From contig CAVVXH010000011.1 in NCBI GenBank assembly GCA_963752155.1, positions 256,001-320,000 of the forward strand: a stretch of 64,000 nt of DNA, given 5' to 3'. This document shows positions 18,558-40,943 of the stretch, piece by piece (within the stretch, counting starts at the first letter, position 1; the number at the start of each line of letters is the position of its first letter). The position numbers and the translations under genes are program-made. The notes under the pieces are model-generated. The model worked only from the letters and a program-made list of their open reading frames with translations. It did not search any database and was not told the DNA's origin. This stretch comes from an uncultured Parachlamydiaceae bacterium. GTDB taxonomy: Bacteria > Chlamydiota > Chlamydiia > Chlamydiales > Parachlamydiaceae.

Positions 18558-19604
18558 ATGAAGTCTGCAATTTTAATTTTTATCTCTTTATGGTTGTGTG
18601 CTTGCACGTCAACTAACTGCTGTGATTTCCCACTGATGGGTGCTGATGAGTTTGTCATGGATTCATATATAATCCGACAAGGCAAGCTTGCAATTTTGGA
18701 AATGGAAGGTATTGATGTCGAACCAATGCCAGAAAATGCCATGTATGAGTATCTAGACACCATTGTCGAAGATGACCTGTTAAATATTGTCATCTACCAT
18801 CCTTCCAGACGAGATTTAATGGAATCCATACAATTCATCAATCATGCTGTGGGTGGATTTCGTGTCAAAGATGGAAATGTCAATTTACCAGATATCCCCC
18901 CTGTGCAAGTTGAAGGGCTCAGTTTAGAAGATGCTCGACAAAAAATCCAATGCGAATTTCAAAGTCAAATCAGCAATGTTGAAGTCTTTGTCACCTATCA
19001 GGATCGTCAAAAAAATAAAGTCGAACTCACAGGACTCGTCAACACTCCCTCCATCCCCGTAGATGGCAAAATGCGCCTTTATGAAACCATTGCCAAAGCA
19101 CGTATCCCACCGGATGCCAATCTATTTATGAGCTATGTATTGCGCTGCGGCCGCCCCTTGCCAATCGATTTACATCAACTCATCAACGAAGGGGACATGT
19201 GCCAAAATATTGTGATGCGTGGCGGAGACAAAATCTTCATTGCAAGTCCAAAAGATGGTCTAGCCGTAGTAATGGGAGAAGTGGTAAGACCCGGCCCTGT
19301 ACCCCTTCCCTACGGATTTCTTTCTCTACGTGAAGCTCTTGTCACCAGCGGAGGAATCCCCTTCACAGGAGATAAAAGGCACATTCAAATCATTCGAGGC
19401 AATTTACAGTGTCCAAAAATCTACGAGCTCTCCTGGGAACATATCATTCACCTACCTAATGACAGCCTCTTAGTGATGCCTGGAGATACAATTTACGTTT
19501 CCGCCAAACCAATCACAGAGTGGAATCGATTTATTGATCAACTATTGCCCACAGTTCTTTTGTTTAAATCAGGACATAGCGTTTATACCGTATTTGGAGA
19601 TTAA
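18558..19604 (+). CDS. wza: Polysaccharide biosynthesis/export lipoprotein (Wza-like)
   Basis: Lipobox-like LCAC, DG.VNLPDI..V.VEGLSLE, and SLBB-type repeats (GEVVRPG, PGDTIYV). Confidence 0.85.
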   Translation: MKSAILIFISLWLCACTSTNCCDFPLMGADEFVMDSYIIRQGKLAILEMEGIDVEPMPENAMYEYLDTIVEDDLLNIVIYHPSRRDLMESIQFINHAVGGFRVKDGNVNLPDIPPVQVEGLSLEDARQKIQCEFQSQISNVEVFVTYQDRQKNKVELTGLVNTPSIPVDGKMRLYETIAKARIPPDANLFMSYVLRCGRPLPIDLHQLINEGDMCQNIVMRGGDKIFIASPKDGLAVVMGEVVRPGPVPLPYGFLSLREALVTSGGIPFTGDKRHIQIIRGNLQCPKIYELSWEHIIHLPNDSLLVMPGDTIYVSAKPITEWNRFIDQLLPTVLLFKSGHSVYTVFGD

Positions 19605-19613
19605 TTTTTTATC

Positions 19614-22301
19614 ATGAGTAAAAATGCATCTATAAAAAACCATGACAACGCAAGCTCTAACATCTTGCTTTCCCTTTCTGACTTTAAACGGATTTGTCAA
19701 AAATGGAAACGACCCATTATCCGAAGTAGCTTACTCTGTGCAGCTTTAGGGGTAATTGTATCCTTACTGCTACCCGTTAAATATACCTCTGAAGCCACTT
19801 TTTATGAAAAAGCTAAATCTTCAAATGGCAGCAACAGTTCTACAAAAAATACTGCTCTGCTCTTGTTAGGAGAGGAAAGAGAAAATTCGGCAATCGTCAT
19901 GCTAAAGTCTCGTAAAATCCTCGAGTCTGCAATCAAAAAACTCGATTTACAAGCGACCATAGAGCCCTATACCATCCTTCCCACCGCAATCACTAAAATC
20001 ATCCAACATCTCAACTATGCAAAAGAAAATCTGATGGCTCAAGGAGCCTACCTGATTAGAAGCAAATATCCCATCATCAAGGATACAATTCCCGAAATAG
20101 TCGCAAAGAACCTCAACTATTCCGGAGAAGTTCCTTTATATTACGAGTTACAATTCACTTCTCCAACAAAATATATCGTCATTGACTCGATCGAGGGAAG
20201 AATCGGAGAAGGTTCATTAGGCATCCCTTTTCAACGGGAAAATATACAGTTTACTTTGGAGGCAACTCCTCGCACAGCTTCTCATCAAAGCGCTTATCAA
20301 ATGAAAGTCAAACCTATCCGTCAGATGGCCGAAGATGTATCCTCAGACCTAAAAGTTGTTTCTGACTATAAAGACAAATCATTTATCACCTTAACGCTAC
20401 AGTTTCGATCACGCCAAGAAACAAGCACTCTTTTAAATGCTATCATGGGAGCTTACCGAAAACATTTACATGATGAACATCACTTAACAGTTGCGAGCCA
20501 AGTCGAGTACTTAAAAGATCGTCGTCATGATATGGAAGAACAACTTTCCACAGTCATGCAGGAACACGCAGAACAACTTTCGGTTCATGCAGGGAATTTG
20601 GATCTGCTTGTAGCAACTCAACAAAATTTACAAAAAAAACTTCTTACTATCGATCTTGAAATCAAACATATTCAACAAGTTCTCAATGAGGGTCCTCATC
20701 TTCAAGCTCAATATTCTTCAGAAAGCGATCCTCCATTTATCCATCAGACCCTAGCAGAAATCCGACGTTATCAACAACACTGTGACTCAATTGACATTGC
20801 ATTAGGAAATTCATCCGACAAAAGTATTAAATTACATCCTATGCCTCTAAATCCTCAATGGGAGAGATTAGCATCGATTCGACAGCTGATCCATGAGCAA
20901 ACTCCTGCACAAGAATTTCAGGGAATCGATTTAGAAACCGCCAATGCCCTATACCTTTCGCAATGTCGTGAATTGAGTGAAACAGAAGCAAACGCTAACC
21001 AATATAAATATATCATTGATAAAATTCCAAATCCAGACTTTGAAATGAGTTCTTTGATAGCCATTTTGACTGATCCTGTAAGCCAAGAGATCGTTAAAAA
21101 GGCAAGTACACTCGCTGTAACTATAAAAGATCAATCCAATCGCACTCAGAAAGAACTCGAGCGTTTAAATCACGATTTAGATTTACAACGAAACGTTCTT
21201 AGCATCCATTTGAACCACATCATCGAAATTTCAAAATTGCGAGCAGACTTTCTTCGCTCTAAAATTAAATCCATTCAGGCTGTCACTTTTGAACTACTTC
21301 AGCAGAAAATTTCACTATTGGAAAAATCCTTATATGACTACGCAACGTCCCGTCTCAACAGCTTAAAACATGAACAAACTTTGATCCTTCAACAAAAACA
21401 GGCTTTACAAAATGATTTTGAAAAGCTGCCTGAACAATGGGCAACAGAAAAGCTTCTCAATCTATATCTTCAAACAGATGCCACCGTCATGCAAACTATT
21501 GGAAGCTTAATTGAATCAAAAAATATTTCCGATCATTTAGAAATGTCTCTCTCAGCTCCTTTTGATTCGGCAACCCCTCCTTTGCATCCTAAATCCCCCC
21601 ACCTTCTCATTTGGGCTCTTCTTGGAGCTTTCTTAGGTGGTGTAGGTATGACGTTCTTTGCAATCACTCAAGCTGTCAAAGAAGGTATTGATGCTACAGA
21701 AGATAATTTATGTCTAGCGGGTCAACACGTTGCAGGGGCTCTATCGCCAAATTACCCAAAAGAAGAAAATCTTGAAACGTTAAGACATTTGGCAGCTTAT
21801 CTTTGCCCGATACAAACTCAAGTAATCAATTCGAATCGTGCTGAAGCTCTGCTTTTACTTGAAAATAATGGCTATAGCTACGCTGCAGAATTTGCAGAAC
21901 TCCTCAGCAAACGAAACCTTAAAGTTATCCTCATATGGATGACATTCGATGCAGTAGAAAGCTCATCAGATGGGTTATTATCCTATCTACAGGGCTTTTC
22001 AAAAAAAATCGAAATCAAACACGAAACGTCATTTGATGAGATCTCTGCTGGAGGTACAACGTCCTATAATGTGGAACTTCTTGAATCACCCACATTTCAA
22101 AAGTTATTATCTCAATTGCGAGAAAATTACGATTATATTATTGCTGTTAGTAAAGCTTCTCTCCTAAGCGCAGAAGCTGAGGCCCTTCTTGCACTATTTG
22201 ATGGTGCAGCGATAACAATTACAGACCAAAAACTGCATGAACTTGACGGTTTCTTTGCTCAAGAGAAAAAGCATTCCTTTATCATCTCATATCCGGAGTA
22301 G
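19614..22301 (+). CDS. Wzc/GumC-like polysaccharide co-polymerase with degenerate kinase domain
   Basis: TM1 followed by P.KY.SEA, LKSR, coiled coil, A.PP..PKSP, TM2 and LRENYDYII; no recognisable Walker A or C-terminal Tyr cluster. Confidence 0.8.
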   Translation: MSKNASIKNHDNASSNILLSLSDFKRICQKWKRPIIRSSLLCAALGVIVSLLLPVKYTSEATFYEKAKSSNGSNSSTKNTALLLLGEERENSAIVMLKSRKILESAIKKLDLQATIEPYTILPTAITKIIQHLNYAKENLMAQGAYLIRSKYPIIKDTIPEIVAKNLNYSGEVPLYYELQFTSPTKYIVIDSIEGRIGEGSLGIPFQRENIQFTLEATPRTASHQSAYQMKVKPIRQMAEDVSSDLKVVSDYKDKSFITLTLQFRSRQETSTLLNAIMGAYRKHLHDEHHLTVASQVEYLKDRRHDMEEQLSTVMQEHAEQLSVHAGNLDLLVATQQNLQKKLLTIDLEIKHIQQVLNEGPHLQAQYSSESDPPFIHQTLAEIRRYQQHCDSIDIALGNSSDKSIKLHPMPLNPQWERLASIRQLIHEQTPAQEFQGIDLETANALYLSQCRELSETEANANQYKYIIDKIPNPDFEMSSLIAILTDPVSQEIVKKASTLAVTIKDQSNRTQKELERLNHDLDLQRNVLSIHLNHIIEISKLRADFLRSKIKSIQAVTFELLQQKISLLEKSLYDYATSRLNSLKHEQTLILQQKQALQNDFEKLPEQWATEKLLNLYLQTDATVMQTIGSLIESKNISDHLEMSLSAPFDSATPPLHPKSPHLLIWALLGAFLGGVGMTFFAITQAVKEGIDATEDNLCLAGQHVAGALSPNYPKEENLETLRHLAAYLCPIQTQVINSNRAEALLLLENNGYSYAAEFAELLSKRNLKVILIWMTFDAVESSSDGLLSYLQGFSKKIEIKHETSFDEISAGGTTSYNVELLESPTFQKLLSQLRENYDYIIAVSKASLLSAEAEALLALFDGAAITITDQKLHELDGFFAQEKKHSFIISYPE

Positions 22302-24354: not shown

Positions 24355-25569
24355 ATGGGAACTATTTTCACTGTAACTTTTCCCGATATTGGAGAAGGTG
24401 TCGTCGAGGGGGAAGTGATTGAATGGCACAAAAAAGAAGGGGACTCGGTTAAACAAGATGAGCCTGTTGTGATGGTCATGACCGACAAGGCCACAGTAGA
24501 GCTCCCCTCTCCTCATCCCGGAATATTTAAAAAGCAATACTATGCGCCCGGGGAAATGGCTATTAAGGATAAGCCATTATACGATATTGAACTAGCTGAA
24601 GGTCAAAAGGGAGAGCAAACTGAACGAACCAAGAAAACTGATCCCATTCATCATTCTGAACAAAAACAAGCAATTCCCGTTCCTCCTACATCTAATGAGT
24701 CTTCCATAGGTAAAAATTTAGCGACTCCAAAAGTTAGAGGACTTGCGAAAGAATTAGGAATTTCGATCGAAGAGATCCATGGAACAGGCAAAGATGGAAG
24801 AGTGACTTCTGAAGATCTGCGTCAAAAAACTATGTGTTCGATGACTTCGGTAACTCCTTTGTGGCATCTACCAGGAGACACGGAAATGCCGATCATAGGC
24901 ATTAAAGCGCGAATGGCCAAAAAAATGACCGAATCGAAAGAACTGATTCCTTCATTTTCTTATTTTGAAGAAGTTGAAGTTACCCGTTTAATTCAATTAA
25001 AAGCGAGCATGAAAACCAAAGCCACGCAAGAAGGAGTCCATCTGACATACATGCCTTTTATTCTCAAGGCACTTTCTGCATGTATCGTTAAATTTCCTTT
25101 TTTGAATAGTTCGTATGATAAAGAAAATTCGAAACTTATTTTACACCGTCAACAAAACATTGGTATTGCTGTAGCGACCCCTTTAGGGCTGATTGTACCT
25201 GTATTAAAGGAAATTGAGAAGTTATCATTGGAACCCCTCATCCGCAACTATGAAGAGCTCATTTTGCGTGCGCAGCAAGGTAAATTGCATCCTTCGGATA
25301 TGAAAGAAGCGACTTTTACTGTCAGTAATTTTGGCAGCAATGGAAGCCATGGACTGTGGGCAACCCCAGTCATTAACTACCCCGAAGTGGCGATTCTTGC
25401 CATAGGGAAGATCCATGCACAGCCGGTTGTGAGAAATGGAGAAGTTGTCGTGCGAGAAATGCTCAATTTATCCTGGAGCTTCGACCATCGAATTATCGAT
25501 GGAGAAGCAGCAGCACATATTTCGAGTCATCTATGCAAGCTGTTGCAAAATCCAGCGAGTCTACTTTAA
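24355..25569 (+). CDS. bkdB: Dihydrolipoamide acyltransferase E2
   Basis: Lipoyl domain TDKA, E3-binding ATP.VR.LA...GTGKDGR, catalytic DHRIIDG. Confidence 0.92.
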   Translation: MGTIFTVTFPDIGEGVVEGEVIEWHKKEGDSVKQDEPVVMVMTDKATVELPSPHPGIFKKQYYAPGEMAIKDKPLYDIELAEGQKGEQTERTKKTDPIHHSEQKQAIPVPPTSNESSIGKNLATPKVRGLAKELGISIEEIHGTGKDGRVTSEDLRQKTMCSMTSVTPLWHLPGDTEMPIIGIKARMAKKMTESKELIPSFSYFEEVEVTRLIQLKASMKTKATQEGVHLTYMPFILKALSACIVKFPFLNSSYDKENSKLILHRQQNIGIAVATPLGLIVPVLKEIEKLSLEPLIRNYEELILRAQQGKLHPSDMKEATFTVSNFGSNGSHGLWATPVINYPEVAILAIGKIHAQPVVRNGEVVVREMLNLSWSFDHRIIDGEAAAHISSHLCKLLQNPASLL

Positions 25570-25587
25570 GGCAGGAAATCAGGACAT
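25453..25587 (+). repeat. Direct repeat, copy 1 (3' end of the E2 gene); attL-like
   Basis: 135 bp repeated at 34435..34569 with 7 mismatches. Confidence 0.95.
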
Positions 25588-25602: not shown

Positions 25603-26634
25603 TCAAAATAGAGTGCAGCTAACACCAAGTGATTGCAGGTTTTCACCAGGCGCGATGATCCCTTTTACAGCATTCATCATTGCTACTCTTTCTTCACAAC
25701 TCATTTTCCTTAAGGCTATCAGCTCTTGACTTTTTATTTCTTGACGTTTTAACTGCGCTCGGTTCTCTTCTTCAAGCTTTTTTTGTGCAAAGCCTAAGTC
25801 CACCTCTTTATTTTTTAGGCGATTTTCTCGCTTTGCATTCTTTTCCTGTAAACTCTGCTTTCGATAATCTATGTCTTTTTGATGTGCAAATACTTCACTT
25901 TGTAACTGCATTTCAAAGGCCCGATACTTCTCTTTTGAAGCAAATTGAGCATGTTGTAAAAATAAACCAAACATTTCTTTTTCTTCGTTAAGTTTTTGGA
26001 CACGCTTAGTCAATTCAATTCCAAGCTCGTGATTTTGTTGATCCCTTAAAATCTGTGCTTGTTCAGCGACTAGGTGAATTTCTGTCATTCTCGCTGAAAA
26101 TAATAGGGTGATTGCTCTTTCACATTTTCCCAACTGATCCTGTTGATTGATGAGCGCAATCGATCTTTCCGCATGAGAAAAAAGAGCTTCAATGAGCTCT
26201 TTGATAGCATTTCCCCAAGATTGGAAATTCTGAACATCGGCAGGCACAGCAGTACCTGCACGAATTTTATTATGTACATCACGAAAGTACTCTAGACGAA
26301 GTCCGATTAATTGTTTTGTTTCTGTTCTGCAGTCTTGGATAATTCCCCTAATTTGTTTTCTATCATCTTCTAAAATTTCGTACTGAATGTTTAAGATTTC
26401 CATCATTTTACTGTGAATTTCCAGTGTTGCTTGTGATGTAAGGAGCCCTCCTTGTAAACTGGTCAGGGTAGCATCAGCGCTGCGATTAGATACATTAAGC
26501 CCATACGGATCCGCACGATCGATCCCGTAATTAACACCATGGGCAGACGCATTCACCCCATATGGGTCTCTTCGATTAATCCCATAGCCACCATCATACT
26601 GATGACCAGCAACTAAATTATATGGATCTGCCAT
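25603..26634 (-). CDS. Coiled-coil protein with N-terminal DPY repeats and C-terminal CaaX (CTLF)
   Basis: RBS aaggag; Q/E/K-rich helical body; ends GVSCTLF. Confidence 0.85.
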   Translation of the reverse strand: MADPYNLVAGHQYDGGYGINRRDPYGVNASAHGVNYGIDRADPYGLNVSNRSADATLTSLQGGLLTSQATLEIHSKMMEILNIQYEILEDDRKQIRGIIQDCRTETKQLIGLRLEYFRDVHNKIRAGTAVPADVQNFQSWGNAIKELIEALFSHAERSIALINQQDQLGKCERAITLLFSARMTEIHLVAEQAQILRDQQNHELGIELTKRVQKLNEEKEMFGLFLQHAQFASKEKYRAFEMQLQSEVFAHQKDIDYRKQSLQEKNAKRENRLKNKEVDLGFAQKKLEEENRAQLKRQEIKSQELIALRKMSCEERVAMMNAVKGIIAPGENLQSLGVSCTLF

Positions 26635-26644
26635 AAAATCTCCT

Positions 26645-27478
26645 TTATTGTAGAATGCATCCAGTTTTTTGTTTAGGTGGTCTATTTTCCCGTGCTTCTA
26701 TCCTACGGGTTTGATTGGTTTCTTTAATTTCTAGGATTCTCTCTTGATGAGCAAGAGCCTGACGCTCAGTTTGGAGTTCTAATTTTTTCTGCTTAAAGCC
26801 CAATTTTTGTCGTTCTATTTCAAGCTGTTGATCATCCTTTTGTTTTTGATATTGAAAAACTTCTCGTTGCTGTTCTCTAGCATAACCATCCTGTTCTCTT
26901 TCTAGAGAAATTTTCTCTTTCTCAATGAATTGATTAAACTTTTGCTCTTGCACTTGAAGTTCCATCTCTTTTCGTTTGACTGTCATTTCAAAATCTGCTT
27001 TTCGACATTCGATATCTAATTTGATTAATTCTTTATATTCATTCAAAAGCTTTTGCCTTAAATCAAACATAACTTTAAATAGCGCATCATATTTATCGGG
27101 ATCAAAGCCTGCATCTTGCAGTTCTATTGCCCTTGAGGCAGTTTGATAAATGAGGTTAAGATAGTTTTTATATTCCTGTGAAATAAATGTGTATGCTTTA
27201 ACTGTTTCTTGATCCAAACCTCCTTGTTCCCTAAATCGCCTGGACATCTCTTGCAGATCAGCTCTTGCTTCGGCTTGTACTTCTATTGATTCTTTTAACC
27301 ATTGATTGCAAATTTCTTTAATCTGATTCTCTTCTATTCTGATCTGATGCGAATGATTACGGAAAGCAGCTGTGATGTCGGCAAACAATGCTTTTTGATT
27401 GACATCAAGCTGTTGAAGTTGGTTGTTAGCCCTTTCAATAAGAGGCATTTGATTTGCTCTATAAACCGTTGGTTCCAT
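26645..27478 (-). CDS. Coiled-coil protein with C-terminal CaaX (CILQ)
   Basis: Probable start MEPTVY at 27478 after RBS aaggag; ends RPPKQKTGCILQ. Confidence 0.85.
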   Translation of the reverse strand: MEPTVYRANQMPLIERANNQLQQLDVNQKALFADITAAFRNHSHQIRIEENQIKEICNQWLKESIEVQAEARADLQEMSRRFREQGGLDQETVKAYTFISQEYKNYLNLIYQTASRAIELQDAGFDPDKYDALFKVMFDLRQKLLNEYKELIKLDIECRKADFEMTVKRKEMELQVQEQKFNQFIEKEKISLEREQDGYAREQQREVFQYQKQKDDQQLEIERQKLGFKQKKLELQTERQALAHQERILEIKETNQTRRIEARENRPPKQKTGCILQ

Positions 27479-27530
27479 GATTTCTCCTTTTTTTCTAGAA
27501 AAAATAAAGCGAATTGCGTAGTTGTTATTC

Positions 27531-29117
27531 CTAATCTGGTCCCATGAGATCAATTACTCTTTTTTGGGCCTCTTTGTTGCCGTTTACAACATCTTTTATG
27601 TCTTGCTCCGTAATACCCTTTGCCCTAAGCAGATCGTCTACCCTTTCTTGGGATGTCATGTATTGCAAAAACTTCACAGATTTTTCCCCTACTCCCAAAC
27701 TTTGGGCTACCGTAGCTAATACAAAACCATATGGATTTTTCTTGATTAACCAAGGAGCTAAATCAATTGTATTACTAATAATCTTCTCGACGAATGACAA
27801 CTCAACATCTTCATTTTGCTGCTGGTTTTTTGGTTGGTCTTGCAAATTATGATTGGTATGGACATTGGGGATTTGAGGATTTTCTTGTCTACGGCTACCA
27901 GAAAAACTCAGAGTTTGATGAGACATTGCTTGTGGAGATTGAATTGGAAATTCTACTTTCTTAGGTTGAGCATTCAGTGGACGCGGGCTGGGCTTATCAA
28001 TGGTAGAGCTTATAGTCAATGAAGAAGGGTTCGGACTTGCTTGCAAGACTCTTGGAGCTGGATTTGTGGAATGGAGATGACTACCCCTTCCGATTTCAGG
28101 AACTTTGCTATTTAATACACGTCCAGATTGAGCTTGAGAAGCAAAATGGGGAATCACTTGCCCCGCTAGAGAAATGATTCGGTCGAAAGAGGCAATCCTA
28201 TCTTGCGAATTCATTTTTGCTAATTCTACATGTTCAATACTGCTAATTTTCCTCATTTCTATATCTCGTGTATTACTTTGAGCATTAAGGTTACACTCAC
28301 GATGATAATCAAGTTGTTTATTCTGTACCTGATTATCTAATCGAACTTTCTTCTTTTCTAAATCGAATTTCGCAAAGTCGAATTTTTCTAAGTGATCTTG
28401 TTTTCTCATGGTCATCATATTTTCAAATTGTCTCTGATTTTCTTCAGAAAGTAACTTTGCTCTTACTAAAACCTGCTGAAATTTCTGTGCTTCTTCTTGA
28501 AGAACGAGGTTTCTCTGCTTAATTTCTATTTCTAATTCATGATTTTCCTGTTTGCGTAATTCTTCCATACGAGTTTTAACTTCTTGTATATCCAGCATCC
28601 TCCCACGGAAAATTGCTTCAATCTCAGATAGATAATCATCGAGTTTCTTTTCTCTTAGTTGCTTGGCAAGAGAAAGAGCTTGAACAGCGATGTGGAAGCA
28701 GTGATCGTTGTATTCACAAACAGCTTTTTTTACAAACTGCCTTCGTCGTTCTGCTTGTTGTATGTCTCCTCCTTGACGAACAAACTCAATTTCTTCAAGA
28801 GTCACTTCTTTAAATTTTTGGGTCATGATCTTGGAGTCTCTTTGCCAATCGTCACATTTTTCTTCAACATCCCAATCTTCTGCAGTAAACGTGGGCACTG
28901 TTACATCGGAAATACGCCTGCCTCCTCTTGTTGACAACTCTTTTGCCAATTCATGGCTAGGCAATGACTCCTGTTGATGCCGACTATCCCAAGAAGTAGA
29001 ATCAAAAAGATAATTACCCGAAGCAACATTTTGTACTGGGTTGATTTGTTGCGTTGAATTAAACTCAAATCCGCCCCAGCTTGTTGATATTGAATTTTTA
29101 GATACCCCTGTTTGCAT
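27531..29117 (-). CDS. Coiled-coil protein with S/P/Q-rich disordered linker, paralog of 25603
   Basis: Probable start MQTGVS at 29117; shares the IF..RM..I......L..Q.NHEL.IE...R...L.EE...F module. Confidence 0.85.
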   Translation of the reverse strand: MQTGVSKNSISTSWGGFEFNSTQQINPVQNVASGNYLFDSTSWDSRHQQESLPSHELAKELSTRGGRRISDVTVPTFTAEDWDVEEKCDDWQRDSKIMTQKFKEVTLEEIEFVRQGGDIQQAERRRQFVKKAVCEYNDHCFHIAVQALSLAKQLREKKLDDYLSEIEAIFRGRMLDIQEVKTRMEELRKQENHELEIEIKQRNLVLQEEAQKFQQVLVRAKLLSEENQRQFENMMTMRKQDHLEKFDFAKFDLEKKKVRLDNQVQNKQLDYHRECNLNAQSNTRDIEMRKISSIEHVELAKMNSQDRIASFDRIISLAGQVIPHFASQAQSGRVLNSKVPEIGRGSHLHSTNPAPRVLQASPNPSSLTISSTIDKPSPRPLNAQPKKVEFPIQSPQAMSHQTLSFSGSRRQENPQIPNVHTNHNLQDQPKNQQQNEDVELSFVEKIISNTIDLAPWLIKKNPYGFVLATVAQSLGVGEKSVKFLQYMTSQERVDDLLRAKGITEQDIKDVVNGNKEAQKRVIDLMGPD

Positions 29118-29145
29118 AAAACTTACCCTTATTAAAACAATTGAT

Positions 29146-30018
29146 TTACTGAATCGAACAACGTTTATGGTGATGATGACCACGACCACCTCTTGGAACT
29201 GGTTGTTGGACTGGCCGTGGAGCTGGTGCTGCAGGGGCAGGTGGAAGACCAACTCCTTCACATTCTACGCTACCTGGTTTCACTAATTTATTTACCCAGT
29301 CAATCTCAGGCGGGATTGCTTTCACTTTCTTGTTTACGTGATTTCCTTTAATGAAGATCTGTGCAACAGCAAGTTCATTTGCGTGAGCTTGTATATACTT
29401 ATCAAAAGTCTCCTGCAGCATATTCCTTTCCACTGCTTCTTTTTGTAGTTGCAGTTCTTGTACTTTGTTCATTTCTTGGAGCTTTCTAGCGTTTTCTTGA
29501 TTCCTTGCGATTTCTTCTATCTCTCGTTCTCTTTCTCGGATTTGTTGTTGAGCTCTTTCAAACTCTAAGTTTCTTTGTTGGATAATTCCTGCTGCTTGAC
29601 TTGACTGTTGGAATGCTTCCCATTGGGCCTTTAATACCATGTCAATAATATTTTGAACTCTCTCTATGGAAGCATTTTGCATTTCAAGTGCTTTAGTAGC
29701 AAACACTTCAAATGTCTGAGCTTGACTATCTTTTGCCAGAACCATAACTTCCTTATAAATTGCTATTAATTCTTTTTGCTCAGCAAGAGGTAATCCTTTT
29801 ATTTCTTGAAGAAGCTGTTGATGCGTTTGTGATATTGCGTCTCGAGCTACTTTGTAAGCTTGTACCAATTCTTCTTGTGTCCTCGTATGATCTTCACCAA
29901 TTTTTTGCATAATTCCTTGGACAGCCACTATTACTTGAGGTGGAAGTTGTATTATCTGTCCGTCTTGGTTATAAGCGTCAACGATATTGTTTAATCCACC
30001 GATTGCCACTGGTTCCAT
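29146..30018 (-). CDS. Coiled-coil protein with Pro/His-rich tail and CaaX (CSIQ)
   Basis: RBS gaggag; ends PPAPAAPAPRPVQQPVPRGGRGHHHHKRCSIQ. Confidence 0.85.
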   Translation of the reverse strand: MEPVAIGGLNNIVDAYNQDGQIIQLPPQVIVAVQGIMQKIGEDHTRTQEELVQAYKVARDAISQTHQQLLQEIKGLPLAEQKELIAIYKEVMVLAKDSQAQTFEVFATKALEMQNASIERVQNIIDMVLKAQWEAFQQSSQAAGIIQQRNLEFERAQQQIREREREIEEIARNQENARKLQEMNKVQELQLQKEAVERNMLQETFDKYIQAHANELAVAQIFIKGNHVNKKVKAIPPEIDWVNKLVKPGSVECEGVGLPPAPAAPAPRPVQQPVPRGGRGHHHHKRCSIQ

Positions 30019-30068
30019 TTTTTTCTCCTCTCATTTGCGTGGGCTTGGACATATTTATCAAAAGTTTC

Positions 30069-30452
30069 CTAAAACTGCTCTTTTTTAATTGCACGCCAAT
30101 TTAATTCATTTTGCTTTTCTCTAGTTTTGAGTAAAACTTCTATTCCCTGATTATTGGCTGCTTTTATCCGATCACATTGCTTTTCTGTAGCTCTATTGAA
30201 TTGATCGTAGTTGGAAATCATTTCTTGATGTGTCATATGATGTAAATCAGAATACAAGGAAACCAATTCTTCTTTCTCTTGAGTAGATTTGCCTTTCATT
30301 TCTTGCAATAGTTGTTGTTGGGTATTGAGAAATTGTGACATAACATCATCCGAAGTCTGTTGCAAACACTGTAAAGATCGTTCTCTTGCATTAAGTAGTG
30401 TTTGTGCTTCTTGGCTAAATATCTCACCGATTAGCGGTAAAACGGGATTCAT
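30069..30452 (-). CDS. Short helical paralog of 29146..30018 (in-frame TAG before a homologous tail)
   Basis: Probable start MNPVLP at 30452 after RBS aaggag; TQQQLLQEMKG...EELVSLY matches THQQLLQEIKG...KELIAIY. Confidence 0.75.
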   Translation of the reverse strand: MNPVLPLIGEIFSQEAQTLLNARERSLQCLQQTSDDVMSQFLNTQQQLLQEMKGKSTQEKEELVSLYSDLHHMTHQEMISNYDQFNRATEKQCDRIKAANNQGIEVLLKTREKQNELNWRAIKKEQF

Positions 30453-30463
30453 AAAATCTCCTT

Positions 30464-31639
30464 TCATTGGTTATGAAAATTTCTTATGTTCTCTCGGATT
30501 TTTTCAATTTCTTCTTCATAGTTTCTCTCAAAGATCTGGTGTTGATAAGCAAGCGATCTTTTTTGCATTTCTATAGCAAAAAGCTCATTTAACTTTTTTC
30601 TTTCAAATGCTTTTGCTTCTTGGCTCTGAGAAAATCTTTGCTCATTTTTTTTGTGATCTAATTCGTTGAACTTAAGTAACTGTAAAATTTTCTGTCCTTC
30701 CTCTGTAAGTTTGATTTTGTGGAAGACAACAGCCATCTCAAGTTCAGCTGATGATGCTTCATTCAGCAAGAAGATTTTTTCTTTTAATAACCCAAGATGT
30801 TGTATGCGAATTGCAAAGATCAAATTGAGAGTTTCTTGATACTTTCTTAATTGGGTATTAAATTGTAATAGATCGAGCTTAAGGGCATATTCTGCAGTCT
30901 GTAAGTAAAATTCAGCAAGTTCTTTTTCCGCTTGGATCAAAAATTCAGCACCATTTTCTCTTTCCAGGTTTCTTTCGCGTTTATTTAAAATATTATCACT
31001 AGCTTGGAGCAAATGATCGACATATTGGTTTTGAGCTGACCTGTATTGTATTTTAAATAAACGGATCTGTTCTTGAATCCATTCATTGAAATGGAAATTC
31101 GGATTCGGAAATTTTTGTCTTAATTGAACTGCTTCCTCTTCAAGCCATTGGTAAACTTCTAAATCTTTAGATGGATCATATGGTATCAATTCCATTCCCA
31201 ACGACTCAATTTCTAGTTGATGTACTTCAACAATACTCATTTGCTCCAAAACAGCACATTGTTTTGTATGGATAGAAGAACCCAAATTCATTTCATGCTG
31301 TACTCTTTGTTTTTCAGCATTCATTTTTACTTGAATGATGCCACTATCAATATCAGAAGTAGAGACTATTTTCTCAAAAGTTTGTTGGTTTGATTCCATG
31401 GCTTTTTTAAAAACCGGCAGAGCTTTTTTTAAAGCTTCAAGTTTTTTGCCTTGCATTTGTTGGAGAATTGCTTGATGAGTAGTACTAACAGACCTTTGAT
31501 GTATTTCTAAATCTTTAGATAGGCTATCTCGCTGACTTTTTGCAATACCATCAATCGCTCTGGTATCGATTGAAGTATTGGGATTTCCCCTATAAAGCAA
31601 AACTGATGAATCAACAACACTTAAAGTACTAACTGACAT
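30464..31639 (-). CDS. Coiled-coil protein carrying both cluster modules
   Basis: THQAILQQMQG (module 1) and LIFAIR...ELEM...KLTEE (module 2). Confidence 0.85.
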   Translation of the reverse strand: MSVSTLSVVDSSVLLYRGNPNTSIDTRAIDGIAKSQRDSLSKDLEIHQRSVSTTHQAILQQMQGKKLEALKKALPVFKKAMESNQQTFEKIVSTSDIDSGIIQVKMNAEKQRVQHEMNLGSSIHTKQCAVLEQMSIVEVHQLEIESLGMELIPYDPSKDLEVYQWLEEEAVQLRQKFPNPNFHFNEWIQEQIRLFKIQYRSAQNQYVDHLLQASDNILNKRERNLERENGAEFLIQAEKELAEFYLQTAEYALKLDLLQFNTQLRKYQETLNLIFAIRIQHLGLLKEKIFLLNEASSAELEMAVVFHKIKLTEEGQKILQLLKFNELDHKKNEQRFSQSQEAKAFERKKLNELFAIEMQKRSLAYQHQIFERNYEEEIEKIRENIRNFHNQ

Positions 31640-31647
31640 CTTTTACC

Positions 31648-33330
31648 TCAATAAATAGATTCTTCTATTTTTTTCAAAGCCTCTAAAAAATTTACTAAAT
31701 TTTTTGACATTTCCCACTCTTCAAGTAATTTCTGGTACATTTGAATAATAATCTGAGAGTCATGTTCATTAAATTTACCGAGAACAATAAGTTTTTTTTG
31801 AATTGACAATAGAATTTTTTTTATCTCAAAGTTTGGGACTTTGAATATCAATTGTCGATATTCATTCTCAAATGATTGTTTTTGCACTGCATCTTGGTTA
31901 AACTGTTGTGCACGAAGCCGTTGCTTTATTTGATCTTGACGTAGTTCTTCGCGAACAGCAACAACTGCCGCTTTTGCATCTTTTCTAATTTCTTCAAACT
32001 TTTGTCGATGCTCTTCAAATTTTCCTAATGCTAATTTATCGTTCAAAAGCTGTTTTTCGGATTGTAAATTTTGAATATTTTGATTTTTTAAGCGACAAAA
32101 CGACAAAACATGTTCACCAGTTTTTAAGACGTCCTCACTCGCCTTTTCCAAAGTTTTTTGCGTACAGCTATAGTTTGGAGAAAGAAAAATAAGATAAACT
32201 AGTTTCTGTTCAGTAAAGTCAGTTTGGTGAACGAGCTCTTTTAATTGACGATCAATTTCTGCTACGCTTATCCTGTAATTGTTAAATAATAATTCGAGTT
32301 TTTTATTTACATACTCGTACCTTTCTTTACATTCCGAGATCTCTTGTTCTAAATTGCTAATAGACCTTTGAATATCTTCAATCGATTCCTGTATTTCTTC
32401 CTCGGATAGGGGCTCTTCTACTGTATAGGGAGCAGATTCAACTTTCATCACTTGGTGTTCTCCATGAGCAGAAAGGCATGATCCTTCATCTGAAGGAAGA
32501 ATCTGGAGTAAACTTCTGCACGCAGAGGAATAATCTGAAAACAATACATCAAAACGGGGATCTAATGGCAACGTCGAAGAACAAATTTCATGACCGAGAA
32601 GTTGACAAATCCTTTTATACACGTCGGGTTCGTAAGGAAAATGAAAACAATTAACGATCTGCATGATCTCTTTTCTTGTAGATTGAATGGAAAGAATCTG
32701 ATGAATAACTAGATCGAGAGTTTGATTTTCCTTACTCACTTGATCGAACAAATATTTAAGAGTTACATTTTTCTCAGCAAAACATTGATTTATCTTCCAG
32801 ATCTCTTCTATTTGAAAAAACAACTTGAAAAGCTCATTTAAATTTTTTTCTGATGGAACTATTTCTTTTAGGTGATGTGAGGCTCTACTTTTCACTTCAA
32901 ATTCTTTTCTATTATATTCTTGGCAACTACTTTGAATTTGCATAAGTAGAGAATTACGTCGTTCCTTGATTGAATAAGCATTATTGATTATAACTTCAAG
33001 TTGACTTGTTAAAAGTTCTCTGAAATTTTCTGGATAAACAATATTTTTCTTACATTGAACAAGCAACTCATATTGACTGTCAATTTCTTGGATGATTGCA
33101 ATTAATTCGGTCTGTGAAATAGAGTCAGAGGAAATCCGTTGCGAATCTAATTTCATGAGAAGATTTTTTACTTCTATAAATTCCTCATAGCAGCTTAATA
33201 GGTTACCTTTATCAAGCAGTAACTGTATTTTTTGAAATAGTATTAACCTGCCAGCACGTTCCGATTCCTCTTGAAGCCCCGTCATCCAATGGGTTGTATA
33301 TGGACCAATTGATGAACTTTCTGAGGACAT
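31648..33330 (-). CDS. Large coiled-coil hypothetical protein
   Basis: 560-aa ORF, RBS aaggag, Ser-rich N-terminus, heptad pattern IEDIQRSISNLEQEISECKERY. Confidence 0.85.
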   Translation of the reverse strand: MSSESSSIGPYTTHWMTGLQEESERAGRLILFQKIQLLLDKGNLLSCYEEFIEVKNLLMKLDSQRISSDSISQTELIAIIQEIDSQYELLVQCKKNIVYPENFRELLTSQLEVIINNAYSIKERRNSLLMQIQSSCQEYNRKEFEVKSRASHHLKEIVPSEKNLNELFKLFFQIEEIWKINQCFAEKNVTLKYLFDQVSKENQTLDLVIHQILSIQSTRKEIMQIVNCFHFPYEPDVYKRICQLLGHEICSSTLPLDPRFDVLFSDYSSACRSLLQILPSDEGSCLSAHGEHQVMKVESAPYTVEEPLSEEEIQESIEDIQRSISNLEQEISECKERYEYVNKKLELLFNNYRISVAEIDRQLKELVHQTDFTEQKLVYLIFLSPNYSCTQKTLEKASEDVLKTGEHVLSFCRLKNQNIQNLQSEKQLLNDKLALGKFEEHRQKFEEIRKDAKAAVVAVREELRQDQIKQRLRAQQFNQDAVQKQSFENEYRQLIFKVPNFEIKKILLSIQKKLIVLGKFNEHDSQIIIQMYQKLLEEWEMSKNLVNFLEALKKIEESIY

Positions 33331-33419
33331 ATTTTTTCTCCTTAATACAACTTTTGATTAAAATAATCATATTTTCTTTTCGAGCAGTAGCTAGGAATCA
33401 TATATCCCATTTCCCAGTT

Positions 33420-33983
33420 TCAATCGTGACGATGACCATGTCCACGGTGTCCGTGCCTACGATGTTCATGCCCTTCATGGTTTCGATGGCGACCATGGTG
33501 ATCTCGGGGTGCTTCTTCAGCAGCTCTCGCTTTTTGAAAATGACACAGCTTTTTTTGATCGTTCGCTGCAATTGCTTCCGCTTGTGCCTTAAGAATCTCA
33601 TTATTTCGTTGGATCAACAACATTTGCAACTCAGCTTCTTGACGCAATAACTCTCTCCTTACTTCTAATGCCTTATCGATAACAGCAAATTGATCATTCA
33701 TGATGGCTCTGCGTACTTCTTCTGCTTTCTGCGCAAATTCTACATAACCACTGATTGCAGCATTTTTTGCCCAAATTATCAATCCTTGATACACTCGGAT
33801 GATTGGTTCAGCCTCTCCAACATTTCTTGTTAGGCTGATTTCTTGAATAAGGGCTTGCATGCTAGCTTCAAGCGAGTTTAAGAACTGCTGGAAGCACTGC
33901 TGAAGTCTTCGGTCGACCTCAACGTTTACATGTGCCATTTGTTGATTCAAGCCATTGACTCCAGATGTAAGTCTTACGTCCAT
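33420..33983 (-). CDS. Helical protein with His-rich C-terminal tail, first gene of the cluster
   Basis: RBS aggag; SMQALIQEI...IIRVY resembles module 1; ends DHHGRHRNHEGHEHRRHGHRGHGHRHD. Confidence 0.85.
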   Translation of the reverse strand: MDVRLTSGVNGLNQQMAHVNVEVDRRLQQCFQQFLNSLEASMQALIQEISLTRNVGEAEPIIRVYQGLIIWAKNAAISGYVEFAQKAEEVRRAIMNDQFAVIDKALEVRRELLRQEAELQMLLIQRNNEILKAQAEAIAANDQKKLCHFQKARAAEEAPRDHHGRHRNHEGHEHRRHGHRGHGHRHD

Positions 33984-34119: not shown

Positions 34120-34551
34120 TTGATTTTTTGTCTGCTTAATCCCACATTTCCGCTGGATGCTTATCAAGTTGTTTTGCTGGAAGAATTTAAAAAGAATGAT
34201 GTTCATGTATACTTCAAAAGCTCTCCTCCTTCAAATTCTCCCGGGGGAACTTTACTGGAACAAATGCAAGGCATGTTTGCTGAGTATGAGCGAGCTCAAA
34301 TTACCGAAAGAACGCGGCGTGGCAAAAATCACAAGGCGCGGAATGGTTGTGTAAATGTCCTAACAAAAGCACCTTACGGATATAGGTATATTTGTGCCTC
34401 TACCTCACAGCAGGCATACTACGAAGTGATCGAACGAGAAATGCTCAATTTATCGTGGAGCTTTGACCATCGAATGATCGATGGAGAAGCAGCAGCACAT
34501 ATCTCGAGTCATCTGTGCAAGCTGTTGCAAAATCCGGCGAGTCTACTTTAA
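34120..34551 (+). pseudogene. Truncated large serine recombinase fused in frame to the duplicated E2 C-terminus
   Basis: LL.QMQG.FAEYERAQI.ERTRRGK..KA..G...APYGYRY, then EREMLNLSWSFDHRMIDG...PASLL; the catalytic N-terminus is missing. Confidence 0.88.
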
Positions 34552-34569
34552 GGCAGGAAATCAGAACAT
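34435..34569 (+). repeat. Direct repeat, copy 2; attR-like
   Basis: Matches 25453..25587. Confidence 0.95.
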
Positions 34570-34573
34570 TTTA

Positions 34574-34805
34574 AATCTGGCGCTATTTCAAGGTGATTTA
34601 GTAAAAATTTTTTGGAGTGCGTGTGGCTCTGCCACCGCGCGAGAGGTATATTGCGAAAAGTCCATTTAGATAGGCAATAGTTTCTACATTAGCATAAATT
34701 GAAATTGTATTGCCCAGTAATTTTTAAAGCAACGTCTCGCGCGGTGGCAGAGCCACACGCACTCCAAAAAATTTTCATCAAGTCAACCTGAAATAGCGCC
34801 AGATT
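34574..34805. mobile_element. MITE-like palindromic element, family A
   Basis: ~70-bp terminal inverted arms aatctggcgctatttcaag...tttttggagtgcgtgtggctctgccaccgcgcgaga. Confidence 0.88.
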
Positions 34806-34863
34806 CCACATAATCGTTCTGATTTCATATGCCCTGAGTAAAAATTGCTATTTGCGGATGAAT

Positions 34864-36432: not shown

Positions 36433-36447
36433 TAATTTATCCTTTGT

Positions 36448-36684
36448 AAATCTAGCGCTAGTTCAAATTGATTTGGTAAAAATTTTTGGAGTGCGTGTGG
36501 CTCTGTCACCGCGCGAGAGGTCTATTGCGAAAAGTCCATTTGGATAGGTAATAGATTTCTACATCAGCATAAATTGAAATTGTATCGCTGCCAGTAGTCT
36601 TTAAAGCAACTTCTCGCGCGGTGGCAGAGCCACACGCACTCCAAAAAATTTTTTATAAATTTAACTTGAAATAGCGCCAGATTT
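36448..36684. mobile_element. MITE-like element, family A
   Basis: Arms and interior homologous to 34574..34805, same orientation. Confidence 0.88.
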
Positions 36685-36745
36685 AATTGGAAGCAAATAA
36701 TAGGACTCAGGAATCATTTTTGTGCAATTTTTGACTTTATCTTGT

Positions 36746-37360
36746 TCAATACATAAAAGGTTTAATCCTAAATAAATGACGTGCAATATCATTTTTGTGA
36801 GAATTTTGGCTCGTATATAAAAACTCATTAAATTCTTCAATAGCAAAAATTAAAGAAGCTCTATTTTTATTTGACATAGACTTGTTTATTTCGATTTTAT
36901 CTATATATGTCACTTTGAATTGCCGTTTCAAAGAAAAGGAATTGTCAGTAATGTCAACCAATCGTCTATAAATGCAAAAATTATGAGTTCCTAAATAAAG
37001 ATCATTAGTCATATCTATTTTTTTTAGTATCACTTGAGACAGACGTATTTCACCAAAATAATTAGCATAAGTATTGATATGTTCTATCTCAATATTACAG
37101 TTATTTGGTAATTTAAGAATATTATTGAAAATAGTGCGTGTAAGTCTCACACATGGCAACTGTTCATGGGTCGATAGTGTACTAAATTTTTTAGATGCTT
37201 CATAGAAACTACCAAGGTCACGAATGGAGAAAGAACAAGCTATTTGAACAAGAATCTCAAAAGGAAGTTTTGTAATAAAATCTTCGTTGACTTTACTCGC
37301 TTCTTCCGGATAAATAACAATTGCATTGATCTTTTTCATCAAATAATCGAAAATAAACAC
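36746..37360 (-). CDS. F-box domain protein
   Basis: ITKLPFEILVQIACSFSIRDLGSFYEASKKF fits the F-box consensus LP.E(I/L)...I....L......V.K.F. Confidence 0.75.
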   Translation of the reverse strand: MFIFDYLMKKINAIVIYPEEASKVNEDFITKLPFEILVQIACSFSIRDLGSFYEASKKFSTLSTHEQLPCVRLTRTIFNNILKLPNNCNIEIEHINTYANYFGEIRLSQVILKKIDMTNDLYLGTHNFCIYRRLVDITDNSFSLKRQFKVTYIDKIEINKSMSNKNRASLIFAIEEFNEFLYTSQNSHKNDIARHLFRIKPFMY

Positions 37361-39257: not shown

Positions 39258-40943
39258 TTAATCGGATGGAAAGAGGTTCTCTTGCTTGAGGAGAAGTTCT
39301 TTTTTATGAAATGCAATGCCAAAAAGAACAATTTTTTTAACTCCAGCATTCTGTAGTTCAGTGGCATATTTTTTTTGATGGATTTGTTCCAAAGCACGAT
39401 ATGCACATTCTTCCATGGATTCATTCGCATTTTTTTTCTTAAACTCGATTACAAAGCCCGGTTGTAATAAATCATGTGGAATTACCACAATATCATAACG
39501 TCCATAACCACTTTCTCTATTGGATTTTACAACATAGCTCTGAGAAAAAACAACAAGCAGGCCAAGAACAAAAAGATGATAGCTACTTTCAGGTACATCC
39601 TCAGAGATATCATGCCAACTCATGCTTTGAACAATAAACTTAGATAATAATTCTGAAAAAAGCTCTCCATCTCCCTTTTGCAAAACTTCATTAAGCACTT
39701 CTACTTCTGAATATCCTAAACTTTGCCTAAAAAGTTCGTCGATGAGATTTTTAAATAAGACATGGAGTTCTTTATTAGGAATAATGAGATCAGCAGTTTG
39801 AATTCCTTCCTTAAGAGTATATGAAACTGCTGTCAAATAACCGCTGAATAAAAGCAAAGACCAAAGAACATTTGGATTAGCTTGCATACTGGGAAGGACC
39901 ATATTGTCTTCAACGCGAACTTCCGGAAGAATCTTGCCTGCAAGAAGTTCTGCACATGTATCTTTAATGTGAGGACTTGCTGTAGCAATCATTTTGGTGA
40001 CGAGGGCATTGTCGCTTGTGTTAGCCCAATAGGTAAGGAATTTTCCTTCTCCCTTAACACAACATAACGAAGACCAAGGATTATAAATTTTAGTCTCACC
40101 TACCAGATAACCATTATACCATTGTTGAAAATCAATTTTGATATTTTCAAGCGCATAATCCCCTAACAGTTGATCTATTTCAGATTCAGTAAACCCGAAC
40201 TTATCTGCAAACCGCTGTTCTGATATAGTGAAAACTTCGAGATTATTCAATCCTGAAAAAATTCCTTCCTTAGCTGTGCGTAGAATACCGGTAAGAACTC
40301 CAAATTTAAGGCTTGAATTATCTTTGAGGGCATCGCCCAAAAAACTTCGCACGAATCCGATGGCTTGTTCGTAATATCCTTGAGTAAGAGCACGATGAAT
40401 GGGAGCATCATATTCATCAATTAAAATAATGGTTTTCTCACCATGATAACGCTCCAAAAAATTCGACAAATAAAGTAAACTCCTATGATATTCACTTTCA
40501 GAGCTTGCATAAGTGACGATTCTATTAAAAATTGCTTTTTCACTGACACTCAAAAGGTCTCCATCACACAAGTATTTATGTCTACGATATTCATTTGCAA
40601 TTACCTGTGCAAACTTCTCGTAAGTTGCCTCCCAACTTGATTCTTTAATTCCCTTGAATGTTATAAAAATTAAGGGGAATTTCCCCTGCATGGTTCGAAT
40701 TTTTGCCACACTCCAAATTTTTTTATCTTCAAAAAGATAGCTGTTTGAATGTTCCGACTTTTCAAAAAAATATTTTAACATTGAAAGATTCAATGTTTTT
40801 CCAAAACGGCGTGGTCGTGGGATTAGAGTGACTGCCCCCCCATGAATAAGTAAGTCTTCAATGAACAATGTTTTGTCGATGTAATAGTAATCTTCATCAA
40901 TAAGTTCTTTATAATCGCTAAGACCGATAGGCAGACGCTGCAT
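39258..40943 (-). CDS. AAA-ATPase-like domain plus PD-(D/E)XK nuclease (DUF1703-type) protein
   Basis: LPIG.SD, RPRRFGKT, IDEYD.P, WYNGY, YNPWS, NRESGYGRYD...IEFK. Confidence 0.92.
   Translation of the reverse strand: MQRLPIGLSDYKELIDEDYYYIDKTLFIEDLLIHGGAVTLIPRPRRFGKTLNLSMLKYFFEKSEHSNSYLFEDKKIWSVAKIRTMQGKFPLIFITFKGIKESSWEATYEKFAQVIANEYRRHKYLCDGDLLSVSEKAIFNRIVTYASSESEYHRSLLYLSNFLERYHGEKTIILIDEYDAPIHRALTQGYYEQAIGFVRSFLGDALKDNSSLKFGVLTGILRTAKEGIFSGLNNLEVFTISEQRFADKFGFTESEIDQLLGDYALENIKIDFQQWYNGYLVGETKIYNPWSSLCCVKGEGKFLTYWANTSDNALVTKMIATASPHIKDTCAELLAGKILPEVRVEDNMVLPSMQANPNVLWSLLLFSGYLTAVSYTLKEGIQTADLIIPNKELHVLFKNLIDELFRQSLGYSEVEVLNEVLQKGDGELFSELLSKFIVQSMSWHDISEDVPESSYHLFVLGLLVVFSQSYVVKSNRESGYGRYDIVVIPHDLLQPGFVIEFKKKNANESMEECAYRALEQIHQKKYATELQNAGVKKIVLFGIAFHKKELLLKQENLFPSD

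Follow-up and report, generated by a model that had tools for sequence, protein, structure and literature searches.

What purpose would a chlamydial operon of paralogous helical proteins serve when three of its eight products end in CaaX, the C-terminal motif at which host enzymes prenylate proteins? This question was raised by a stretch of 64,000 nucleotides, hereafter the window, from an uncultured Parachlamydiaceae bacterium (assembly GCA_963752155.1, contig CAVVXH010000011.1, positions 256,001 to 320,000), the minus strand of which carries eight open reading frames (ORFs), spanning 25603-33983 and named G1 to G8 in transcription order. Four of these genes belong to a protein family, here called B, that is real and previously undescribed. 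In the reading preferred here, to which a probability of about 0.45 is given, B subunits prenylated by the host would hold partners without CaaX, together with their cargo, at a host membrane.

Operon structure and CaaX ends

The gaps from G1 to G8 measured 89, 8, 11, 50, 28, 52 and 10 nt, and Gln, Glu and Lys together accounted for 22.5-33% of the G1-G8 products. AGGAG or GAGG preceded seven of the eight starts and a weaker AAGGGT preceded that of G6; the starts of G4 (30452), G6 (29117) and G7 (27478) were shifted to the ATGs with the best ribosome-binding sites. Apart from the weaker site of G6, these data confirmed an earlier sequence-only reading in its coordinates, gaps and composition, namely eight tightly packed minus-strand genes rich in Gln, Glu and Lys, each with a ribosome-binding site. 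The GC content at third codon positions (GC3) was 0.26-0.31 in six of the eight genes versus 0.33+/-0.07 for the genome, which is a slight shift only.

The three CaaX ends that had been read from the sequence are all canonical. G5 (29146-30018; 290 aa, with a Pro/His tail) ends in ...RCSIQ, with the motif CSIQ at codons 29149-29160; G7 (26645-27478; 277 aa) ends in ...GCILQ, with CILQ at codons 26648-26659; and G8 (25603-26634; 343 aa) ends in ...SCTLF, with CTLF at codons 25606-25617. By the general rule of prenyltransferase specificity, a Q at X favours farnesyl and an F favours geranylgeranyl or either. All three ends have Cys at -4, an aliphatic a2 and an X acceptable to farnesyltransferase (FTase) or geranylgeranyltransferase I (GGTase I).

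Conservation of the CaaX motif

Genome-wide, Cys at -4 was not enriched: it occurred in 52 of 2521 ORFs, and the other positions from -1 to -10 gave 31-56. The canonical end, C-x-[IVL]-[MQLSFAC], was present in 15 of 2521 ORFs versus 2-6 when the motif was slid inward. Set against this genome-wide frequency, a comparison that the sequence-only reading had itself suggested, three canonical ends among the eight operon genes gave P=1.2e-5, and about 0.01 such windows would be expected.

Single-sequence homolog searches with the window proteins gave no matches. A profile built from the window's four B genes only was then searched against 1.84 billion representatives at E<=0.001 and matched 76 proteins, forming 76 clusters at 50% identity, of which four were the window's own and 72 were non-self. 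Cys at -4, the residue on whose conservation in homologs the proposal of host prenylation depended, was found in 52 of the 76 (50 of the 72 non-self), with 0-1 Cys at each of the other positions from -1 to -10, and a canonical CaaX was found in 50 (48 of the 72 non-self). Among the 52 members with this Cys, a2 was I, V or L in 50, and X was M in 25, Q in 10, S in 6, L in 5, F in 4, C in 1 and H in 1, that is, M, Q or S in 41. The motif was kept although identity to G8 is 12-28%. The profile included two CaaX ends, but a tail of four columns is too short to produce E-values as low as 1e-38, and the motif is missing from 24 of the matches. These sequence comparisons indicate that the CaaX ends are not chance and that the motif is under selection, very probably for prenylation. 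The Ras-like basic residues that had been noted ahead of the CaaX are present in G5 and G7 (net charge at -12 to -5 of +3 each; 0 in G8) and are no general feature, the mean net charge of the family being +0.87.

Relatives matched in the protein-library search are labelled P00xx. On a quick tree, CaaX loss clustered, with 10 changes where shuffling gave 20.6 on average; members without CaaX thus belong to lineages of their own, and every window B gene shared its CaaX state with its own nearest relatives. The closest relatives of G7 were P0032 (CIVM) and P0036 (CMIQ), those of G8 were P0010 (CTIL) and P0012 (CVIS), and the G3 relatives P0024, P0025 and P0033 lacked CaaX, as does G3. Moreover, P0006 and P0024, relatives of G6 and G3, appear to share a contig, as do the G8 and G7 relatives P0010 and P0032, and P0012 and P0036.

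Paralog groups and predicted folds

Paralogy was judged by pairwise scores against window-shuffled controls (z). Seven of the eight genes fell into two weakly related groups and G2 into neither, so that their earlier description as mostly paralogous held for all but this gene. Group A comprised G1, G4, G5 and the N-terminus of G3 (z of 9.2 for G1-G5, 7.6 for G4-G5 and a weak 3.6 for the G3 N-terminus with G5), and group B comprised the C-terminus of G3, G6, G7 and G8 (z of 13.5 for G6-G8, 6.7 for G6-G7 and 6.7 for G3-G7); no further copy of either group was found at a significant level among the ORFs of the assembly. G1 (33420-33983; 187 aa) has a His-rich tail and no CaaX, and an A-type relative with such a tail lies at L150:8858-9874, where L-labels with coordinates give gene positions in the loci of relatives. 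G4 (30069-30452; 127 aa) is a shortened duplicate of G5: it terminates at an in-frame stop, about 13 codons beyond which are still G5-like and then reach the G5 ribosome-binding site, and a 40-nt repeat found in the window, D10, backs its origin as a G5 copy. G3 (30464-31639; 391 aa) has a short A-like N-terminal stretch followed by a B domain, and in G6 (27531-29117; 528 aa) a long linker joins the B domain to a C-terminal segment of mild hydrophobicity, a layout shared by its relative P0006; neither carries CaaX. G2 (31648-33330; 560 aa), rich in Gln, Glu and Lys and helical by composition (no structure was predicted), also lacks CaaX, and sequence comparison found neither a paralog in the window nor a homolog; it is perhaps a candidate passenger or cargo.

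The model of G8 (mean pLDDT 79.4, pTM 0.46, 69-row alignment) consists of a disordered N-terminus, helices at 67-126, 131-164 and 167-324, the last of 158 residues, and an unstructured CaaX tail, whereas that of G5 (mean pLDDT 77.2, pTM 0.35, 6-row alignment) has helices at 27-73 and 78-226, a beta-hairpin at 230-255 and then the tail. Groups A and B likely share descent, because these predicted topologies agree, though the profile comparison is weak. The hydrophobic periodicity of residues 70-230 is 3.6 and not the heptad value of 3.5, and residues 230-324, the 95 nearest to the anchor, show no hydrophobic stripe (amplitude 0.04). A helical hairpin plus long helix suits this period better than the coiled coil proposed earlier. 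From H202 to the C-terminus, CaaX members have a median of 125 residues, which if helical would make a rod of a calculated length of about 18 nm. The conserved B core (F179, R182, H202 and L215-K-E-E) contains no recognisable catalytic set, and no transmembrane segment was found in G1-G8 (maximum KD19 0.38-1.13). Pfam, NCBIfam and PHROG gave no match to G1-G8 at the curated cut-off or at E<0.001, and fold and family comparisons gave nothing above background, which agrees with the original observation of no enzyme motif and no described family.

Loci of relatives

Genomes are labelled by G plus three digits (e.g. G003), G000 being the source genome. The window-only B profile matched in 10 of 399 other genomes of the phylum, and a deeper B profile in 10 of 400 at E<=1e-4, from five families; some rows of the deeper profile come from the matched genomes, so that its E-values are not independent. 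The deeper profile gave no match in the same-genus genome G001 (99% complete), and group A was rarer still (2 of 280 other genomes). All four clusters carrying an organism name, among 30 looked up, were chlamydial, and members are recorded in Neochlamydia and Parachlamydia strains; further members may exist beyond the phylum. The spread of B genes is patchy, and the loci of G193, G003 and G368 sit among apparent transposase genes (translations judged by eye). The cassette probably spreads horizontally.

A CaaX-B gene was present in nine of the ten other B-bearing genomes, and in five of these nine (G276, G103, G204, G368 and G167, from four families) the same locus held a full-length CaaX-less B gene. 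The G276 locus contains three CaaX genes, one CaaX-less B and two genes of helical-jacalin-DnaJ architecture; those of G103 and G204 contain CaaX-B, jacalin-DnaJ and CaaX-less B; that of G368 contains CaaX-B and then jacalin-DnaJ fused to B; and that of G167 contains CaaX-B, a B fragment, a GTPase-B fusion and two more GTPases. Furthermore, two CaaX-B genes with a GTPase piece were found in G023, and B fragments accompany CaaX-B in G193. Fusions of a GTPase to B comprise P0062, P0063, P0066, P0072 and L037:7776-9998, the four P-numbered ones without CaaX, and a helical-jacalin-DnaJ+B fusion lies at L036:2645-5380. The GTPase of the relatives matches MMR_HSR1 only, and weakly (Pfam). With a GTPase+B profile, matches came from 34 of 399 other genomes, mostly via the GTPase part alone, so B appears to have been added onto a wider chlamydial GTPase module.

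Several further observations concern these loci. A P-loop GTPase module with helical extensions is widespread in chlamydiae (L072-L096, L070 and L071), and one close relative of it comes from a contig whose title names an Acidimicrobiales MAG (metagenome-assembled genome), possibly through mis-binning. The helical-jacalin-DnaJ architecture, of which no description was found in the literature searched, stands beside B genes in four genomes, and a fifth has a distant relative without a DnaJ match (L034:5175-9029, L035:8939-10903, L036:2645-5380, L038:7160-9127 and L030:7213-8994). In G003 and G193, an NB-ARC-TPR protein with its own CaaX adjoins a lone CaaX-B gene; these proteins, which end in CLVM or CLLM (L032:6524-9562, L032:17425-18876 and L033:9671-13177, one a TPR-only piece), may be NLR-like proteins with prenyl tails. 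In addition, the A-type gene that encodes a His-rich tail stands ahead of two Gln/Glu/Lys-rich genes at L150:6779-15663, near caspase-TPR and NB-ARC-TPR genes, and an XRE regulator is found both upstream of it and at the G368 B locus (L036:8471-8875).

Proposed secretion and predicted complex formation

Export of the operon proteins into a host cell is considered probable, the type III system of chlamydiae being the likeliest route. Type III signals are rich in Ser, Thr, Pro and Asn, and the N-termini of the family had a fraction of these residues of 0.37 versus 0.23 for the genome (n=69). In the assembly, the sctJ-L-R-T cluster and the secretin are intact, and the type III gene cluster is common to the relatives. 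At G000 C10:588198-592894, sctV, sctU and a copN-like gene appear split, and so does an ATPase subunit gene at C11:136798-137912. Breaks also affect 6 of the 38 other genes scored in this frameshift-prone assembly, which is 80% complete; assembly error is therefore a simpler reading than decay for the type III genes, though decay is conceivable. TraC was not found in this incomplete assembly. A weak OmcB-type match, the shared type III cluster and the chlamydial names of family clusters point to an environmental chlamydia as the source. As for a prenyltransferase of its own, the incomplete genome gave no PF01239 or PF00432 match, where the PF00432 control matched nowhere.

Co-assembly of the subunits, which had been proposed earlier, was borne out in part, by a weak pass of one pair. 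The predicted complex of G8 (60-330) with G6 (70-325), run without alignments, scored 0.45 versus 0.00 for the best of three controls; the runs agreed in at least 75% of contacts, and partner pLDDT was at least 77. In the calibration of the tool, 51 of 78 solved pairs and 2 of 108 mismatched ones attained the pass mark; passes at 0.60 or below came from only 5 of the solved pairs and from every one of the 4 mismatches that passed. Overall, co-assembly is rated slightly more likely than not.

Genomic setting and neighbouring genes

The operon occupies an insert resembling an island, whose insertion target is the 3' end of an intact 2-oxoacid dehydrogenase E2 gene (24355-25569, plus strand; Pfam). 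A repeat search found two 147-nt direct copies of the E2 3' end on the plus strand, at 25441-25587 and 34423-34569, which flank the operon, are 8982 nt apart and are 93% identical. Within the repeat, six codons differ between the copies, five of them synonymously, so both E2 3' ends evolved as working gene ends, and one copy probably came from a related strain. A serine recombinase remnant of about 100 codons (34120-34428, plus strand; Resolvase, E 8e-11) continues in frame into copy 2 of the E2 3' end; neither an intact recombinase nor another copy of the serine recombinase was found in the assembly. At the E2 site of relatives, the contigs of G001 and G002 end just after E2, and G003 and G006 hold other genes there. 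These repeats were observed directly, and mobility of the insert may be supposed from them. The earlier description of the operon itself was sound; it had overlooked the flanking repeats, the division into A and B and the cargo fusions of relatives.

Just outside the island lies a dispersed palindromic repeat (34557-34836) with many copies genome-wide; copies of about 240-280 nt at 34557-34836 and 36444-36686 bracket an AAA-ATPase/DUF234 gene. Elsewhere in the window are an RHS-repeat protein of 1814 aa with DUF6531 (11615-17059), a 1249-aa ORF without Pfam match (5726-9475), and genes of Wza/Wzz type for the export of polysaccharide, an ORF with weak likeness to F-box proteins and a gene of AAA-ATPase-like/PD-(D/E)XK type (18558-22301; 36746-37360; 39258-40943).

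In the source genome, canonical CaaX ends outnumber the slid controls by about ten. Other canonical CaaX proteins in it are encoded at C1:346-1533, C12:64030-64743, C6:240738-243602, C6:283694-286033, C7:27638-28747, C10:54141-55259 and C10:203942-205003; by eye, they look like separate effector families, comprising PPR-like and NB-ARC-like proteins and a three-member group ending in CVIQ, CVIQ and CTVQ.

Interpretation and rival explanations

In the preferred reading, the operon proteins would be exported into the eukaryotic host cell, and host prenyltransferases would modify the CaaX Cys of G5, G7 and G8. The prenylated subunits would then hang by their C-termini on the cytosolic side of some host membrane with the long helix pointing away, and the CaaX-less G3, G6, G1 and perhaps G4 would join them via the shared hairpin-plus-long-helix domain, thus reaching the membrane unanchored. 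The B domain may be a module by which cargo docks onto a partner with a prenyl anchor, because relatives fuse B behind a P-loop GTPase or behind helical-jacalin-DnaJ; in this operon, the cargo could be the C-terminal segment of G6, the N-terminal part of G3 and perhaps G2. The island flanks, the A/B split and the cargo fusions of relatives together suggested this anchor-plus-passenger design. Selected CaaX mimicry in chlamydiae is well supported by the sequence comparisons, and secretion and prenylation of these proteins are presumed; the new part would be the anchor in trans, which we place somewhat below even odds. More tentatively, a platform may be envisaged in which one helical domain self-assembles at host membranes as a hetero-oligomer or polymer of subunits with host-added prenyl anchors and subunits with interchangeable cargo (GTPase, jacalin-DnaJ or hairpins), the cassette moving on islands from one symbiont to another.

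Several results weigh against the preferred reading. The two full-length relatives of G5 lack CaaX, so that the motif is not conserved there, and no enzyme cargo was recognised in the operon. Strongly Ser/Thr/Pro/Asn-rich N-termini were found in G2, G3 and G6 only and not in the CaaX proteins G5, G7 and G8; moreover, sctV and sctU are fragmented and a search of the 80%-complete assembly gave no sctN, though four of four relatives have it. The G8-G6 score falls in a range that is more often wrong than right unless the pair is likely beforehand, and the prediction does not distinguish close family members. The A-B profile comparison gave an hhalign probability of 5-11%. In three of the nine genomes (G003, G315 and G023, the last with a contig of 4.2 kb), no CaaX-less B gene lies beside CaaX-B in the locus DNA examined, and the CaaX-B gene stands alone in G003, G315 and a second G193 locus.

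Such partnerless genes in G003 and G315 would suit a tandem expansion of independent paralogous effectors, each secreted, prenylated if it has CaaX and directed at its own host target, with the CaaX-less copies acting off the membrane or using another anchor. The shortened duplicate G4, the CaaX ends on other effector-like families of the source genome and the weak support for the G8-G6 complex also fit this explanation, which is nevertheless judged unlikely, because conserved CaaX-less B lineages recur beside CaaX-B in five genomes of four families and because B is repeatedly a C-terminal module behind different cargo. The operon might instead encode a membrane-shaping polymer or a coat, like ESCRT-III/PspA or guanylate-binding proteins, in which the paralogs co-polymerise, prenyl groups anchor and a GTPase acts as driver in some relatives; this appears improbable. 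A multi-component membrane-damaging or pore-forming system with the logic of ClyA/Hbl/YaxAB, in which the prenyl group would replace the membrane-binding subunit and the target would be the host or its other invaders, is quite implausible: the top 19-residue windows of the family (KD19 1.57-1.81) lie in GTPase cores, CaaX tails and P0006 and never in the B core, no toxin matched in Pfam and the YaxB score equalled background.

The sequence-only reading had offered a SNARE mimic or a tether among its options. In Legionella LseA, a CAAX box accompanies a coiled coil (PMC7542358), coiled coils let YlfA and YlfB assemble both as homomers and as heteromers (PMC4961411), and a long helix with a lipid anchor at its end would suit a tether. 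However, no SNARE, syntaxin, synaptobrevin or IncA family matched in Pfam among the 69 family members, the period is 3.6, the 95 anchor-proximal residues have no stripe and a GTPase or jacalin-DnaJ cargo fusion is un-SNARE-like; a SNARE mimic is accordingly rated most unlikely. It is scarcely credible, finally, that the CaaX ends are chance or unused and that the proteins act inside the bacterium. The lack of genome-wide enrichment of Cys at -4, the incomplete look of the type III genes in the assembly and a report that one chlamydia encodes prenyltransferase domains of its own (bioRxiv 10.1101/2024.11.28.625222) could be taken in its favour; the canonical motif, however, is exactly terminal in 48 of 72 non-self relatives.

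If the more tentative platform is real, several dedicated subunits would make up a bacterial membrane scaffold that is assembled within the host, and the literature searched held no such design. Chlamydiae are thought to reach membranes mainly via the transmembrane hairpins of Inc proteins. The prenyl route, above all with the anchor in trans, would be a second strategy, open also to species without an inclusion. Moreover, known host prenylation concerns a few unrelated Legionella and Salmonella effectors, whereas here a whole family spread over the chlamydial phylum is built around the motif.

Comparison with known systems

Structural and sequence likenesses to several known systems were weighed. 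Membership of the chlamydial Inc proteins was rejected because no bilobed hydrophobic domain is present. For ClyA/Hbl/YaxAB, no family sequence matched, the only hit being a sub-threshold Colicin match on G3 (E 0.015). ESCRT-III, PspA and Vipp1 resemble the operon proteins in a long helical hairpin followed by extended helices, in their several paralogs and in membrane association. The operon proteins differ in their predicted C-terminal prenyl anchor and in structural scores at background, and on the sequence features compared they are no members, neither PspA_IM30 nor Snf7 having matched. Guanylate-binding proteins have a GTPase, a helical stalk, a long charged helix and a CaaX, to which some B relatives (GTPase, helical part and B) are similar; here, in contrast, the CaaX is on a separate B gene, the GTPase+B fusions lack it and the GTPase matches MMR_HSR1 alone. 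No N-terminal large GTPase domain was found by Pfam in G1-G8, and membership of the guanylate-binding or dynamin-like GTPases was rejected.

The insert itself resembles islands of the e14 type. e14 reportedly integrates at the 3' end of icd, a protein-coding gene, and supplies a replacement end. The likeness lies in the duplicated 3' gene end, the mostly synonymous differences and a recombinase at the border; the differences are that here a truncated serine recombinase is fused to the second E2 copy and that no empty site was found among the close relatives compared.

SNARE identity was rejected, since Pfam matched a SNARE motif neither in the 69 family members (E<=0.01) nor in the 8 genes (E<=0.1), and since SNAREs carry beside their anchor a heptad stripe, 60-70 residues long, that is absent here (period 3.6 at 70-230, none at 230-324). 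LseA, which resembles syntaxin-6, is alike in its CAAX box (PMC7542358), and YlfA/YlfB (LegC7/LegC2) are alike in being helical effectors and paralogs of each other that assemble into heteromers at host membranes. The Ylf proteins anchor by N-terminal hydrophobic segments, whereas the operon proteins have neither a transmembrane segment nor a SNARE match.

By analogy, the family may work like host-prenylated effectors. Salmonella SifA is said to be one of these. Others are Legionella AnkB and PelA-K/CMPs (PMC13081727) and Salmonella GtgE (PMC13423502). Among chlamydiae, Neochlamydia S13 has a conserved type III system and protects amoebae from Legionella, in a report whose text mentions neither CAAX nor prenyl (PMC3991601), and the literature searched, including PMC3482391, held no description of the B family or of chlamydial CaaX effectors. 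The operon proteins share with the host-prenylated effectors a C-terminal CaaX, an intracellular bacterium, predicted host lipidation and the cytosolic membrane face. Those effectors are known as single unrelated proteins, each with its own anchor; here, anchored and unanchored paralogs are encoded in one operon, and the fusion of cargo to the unanchored form is a feature of the B family that sets it apart from them.

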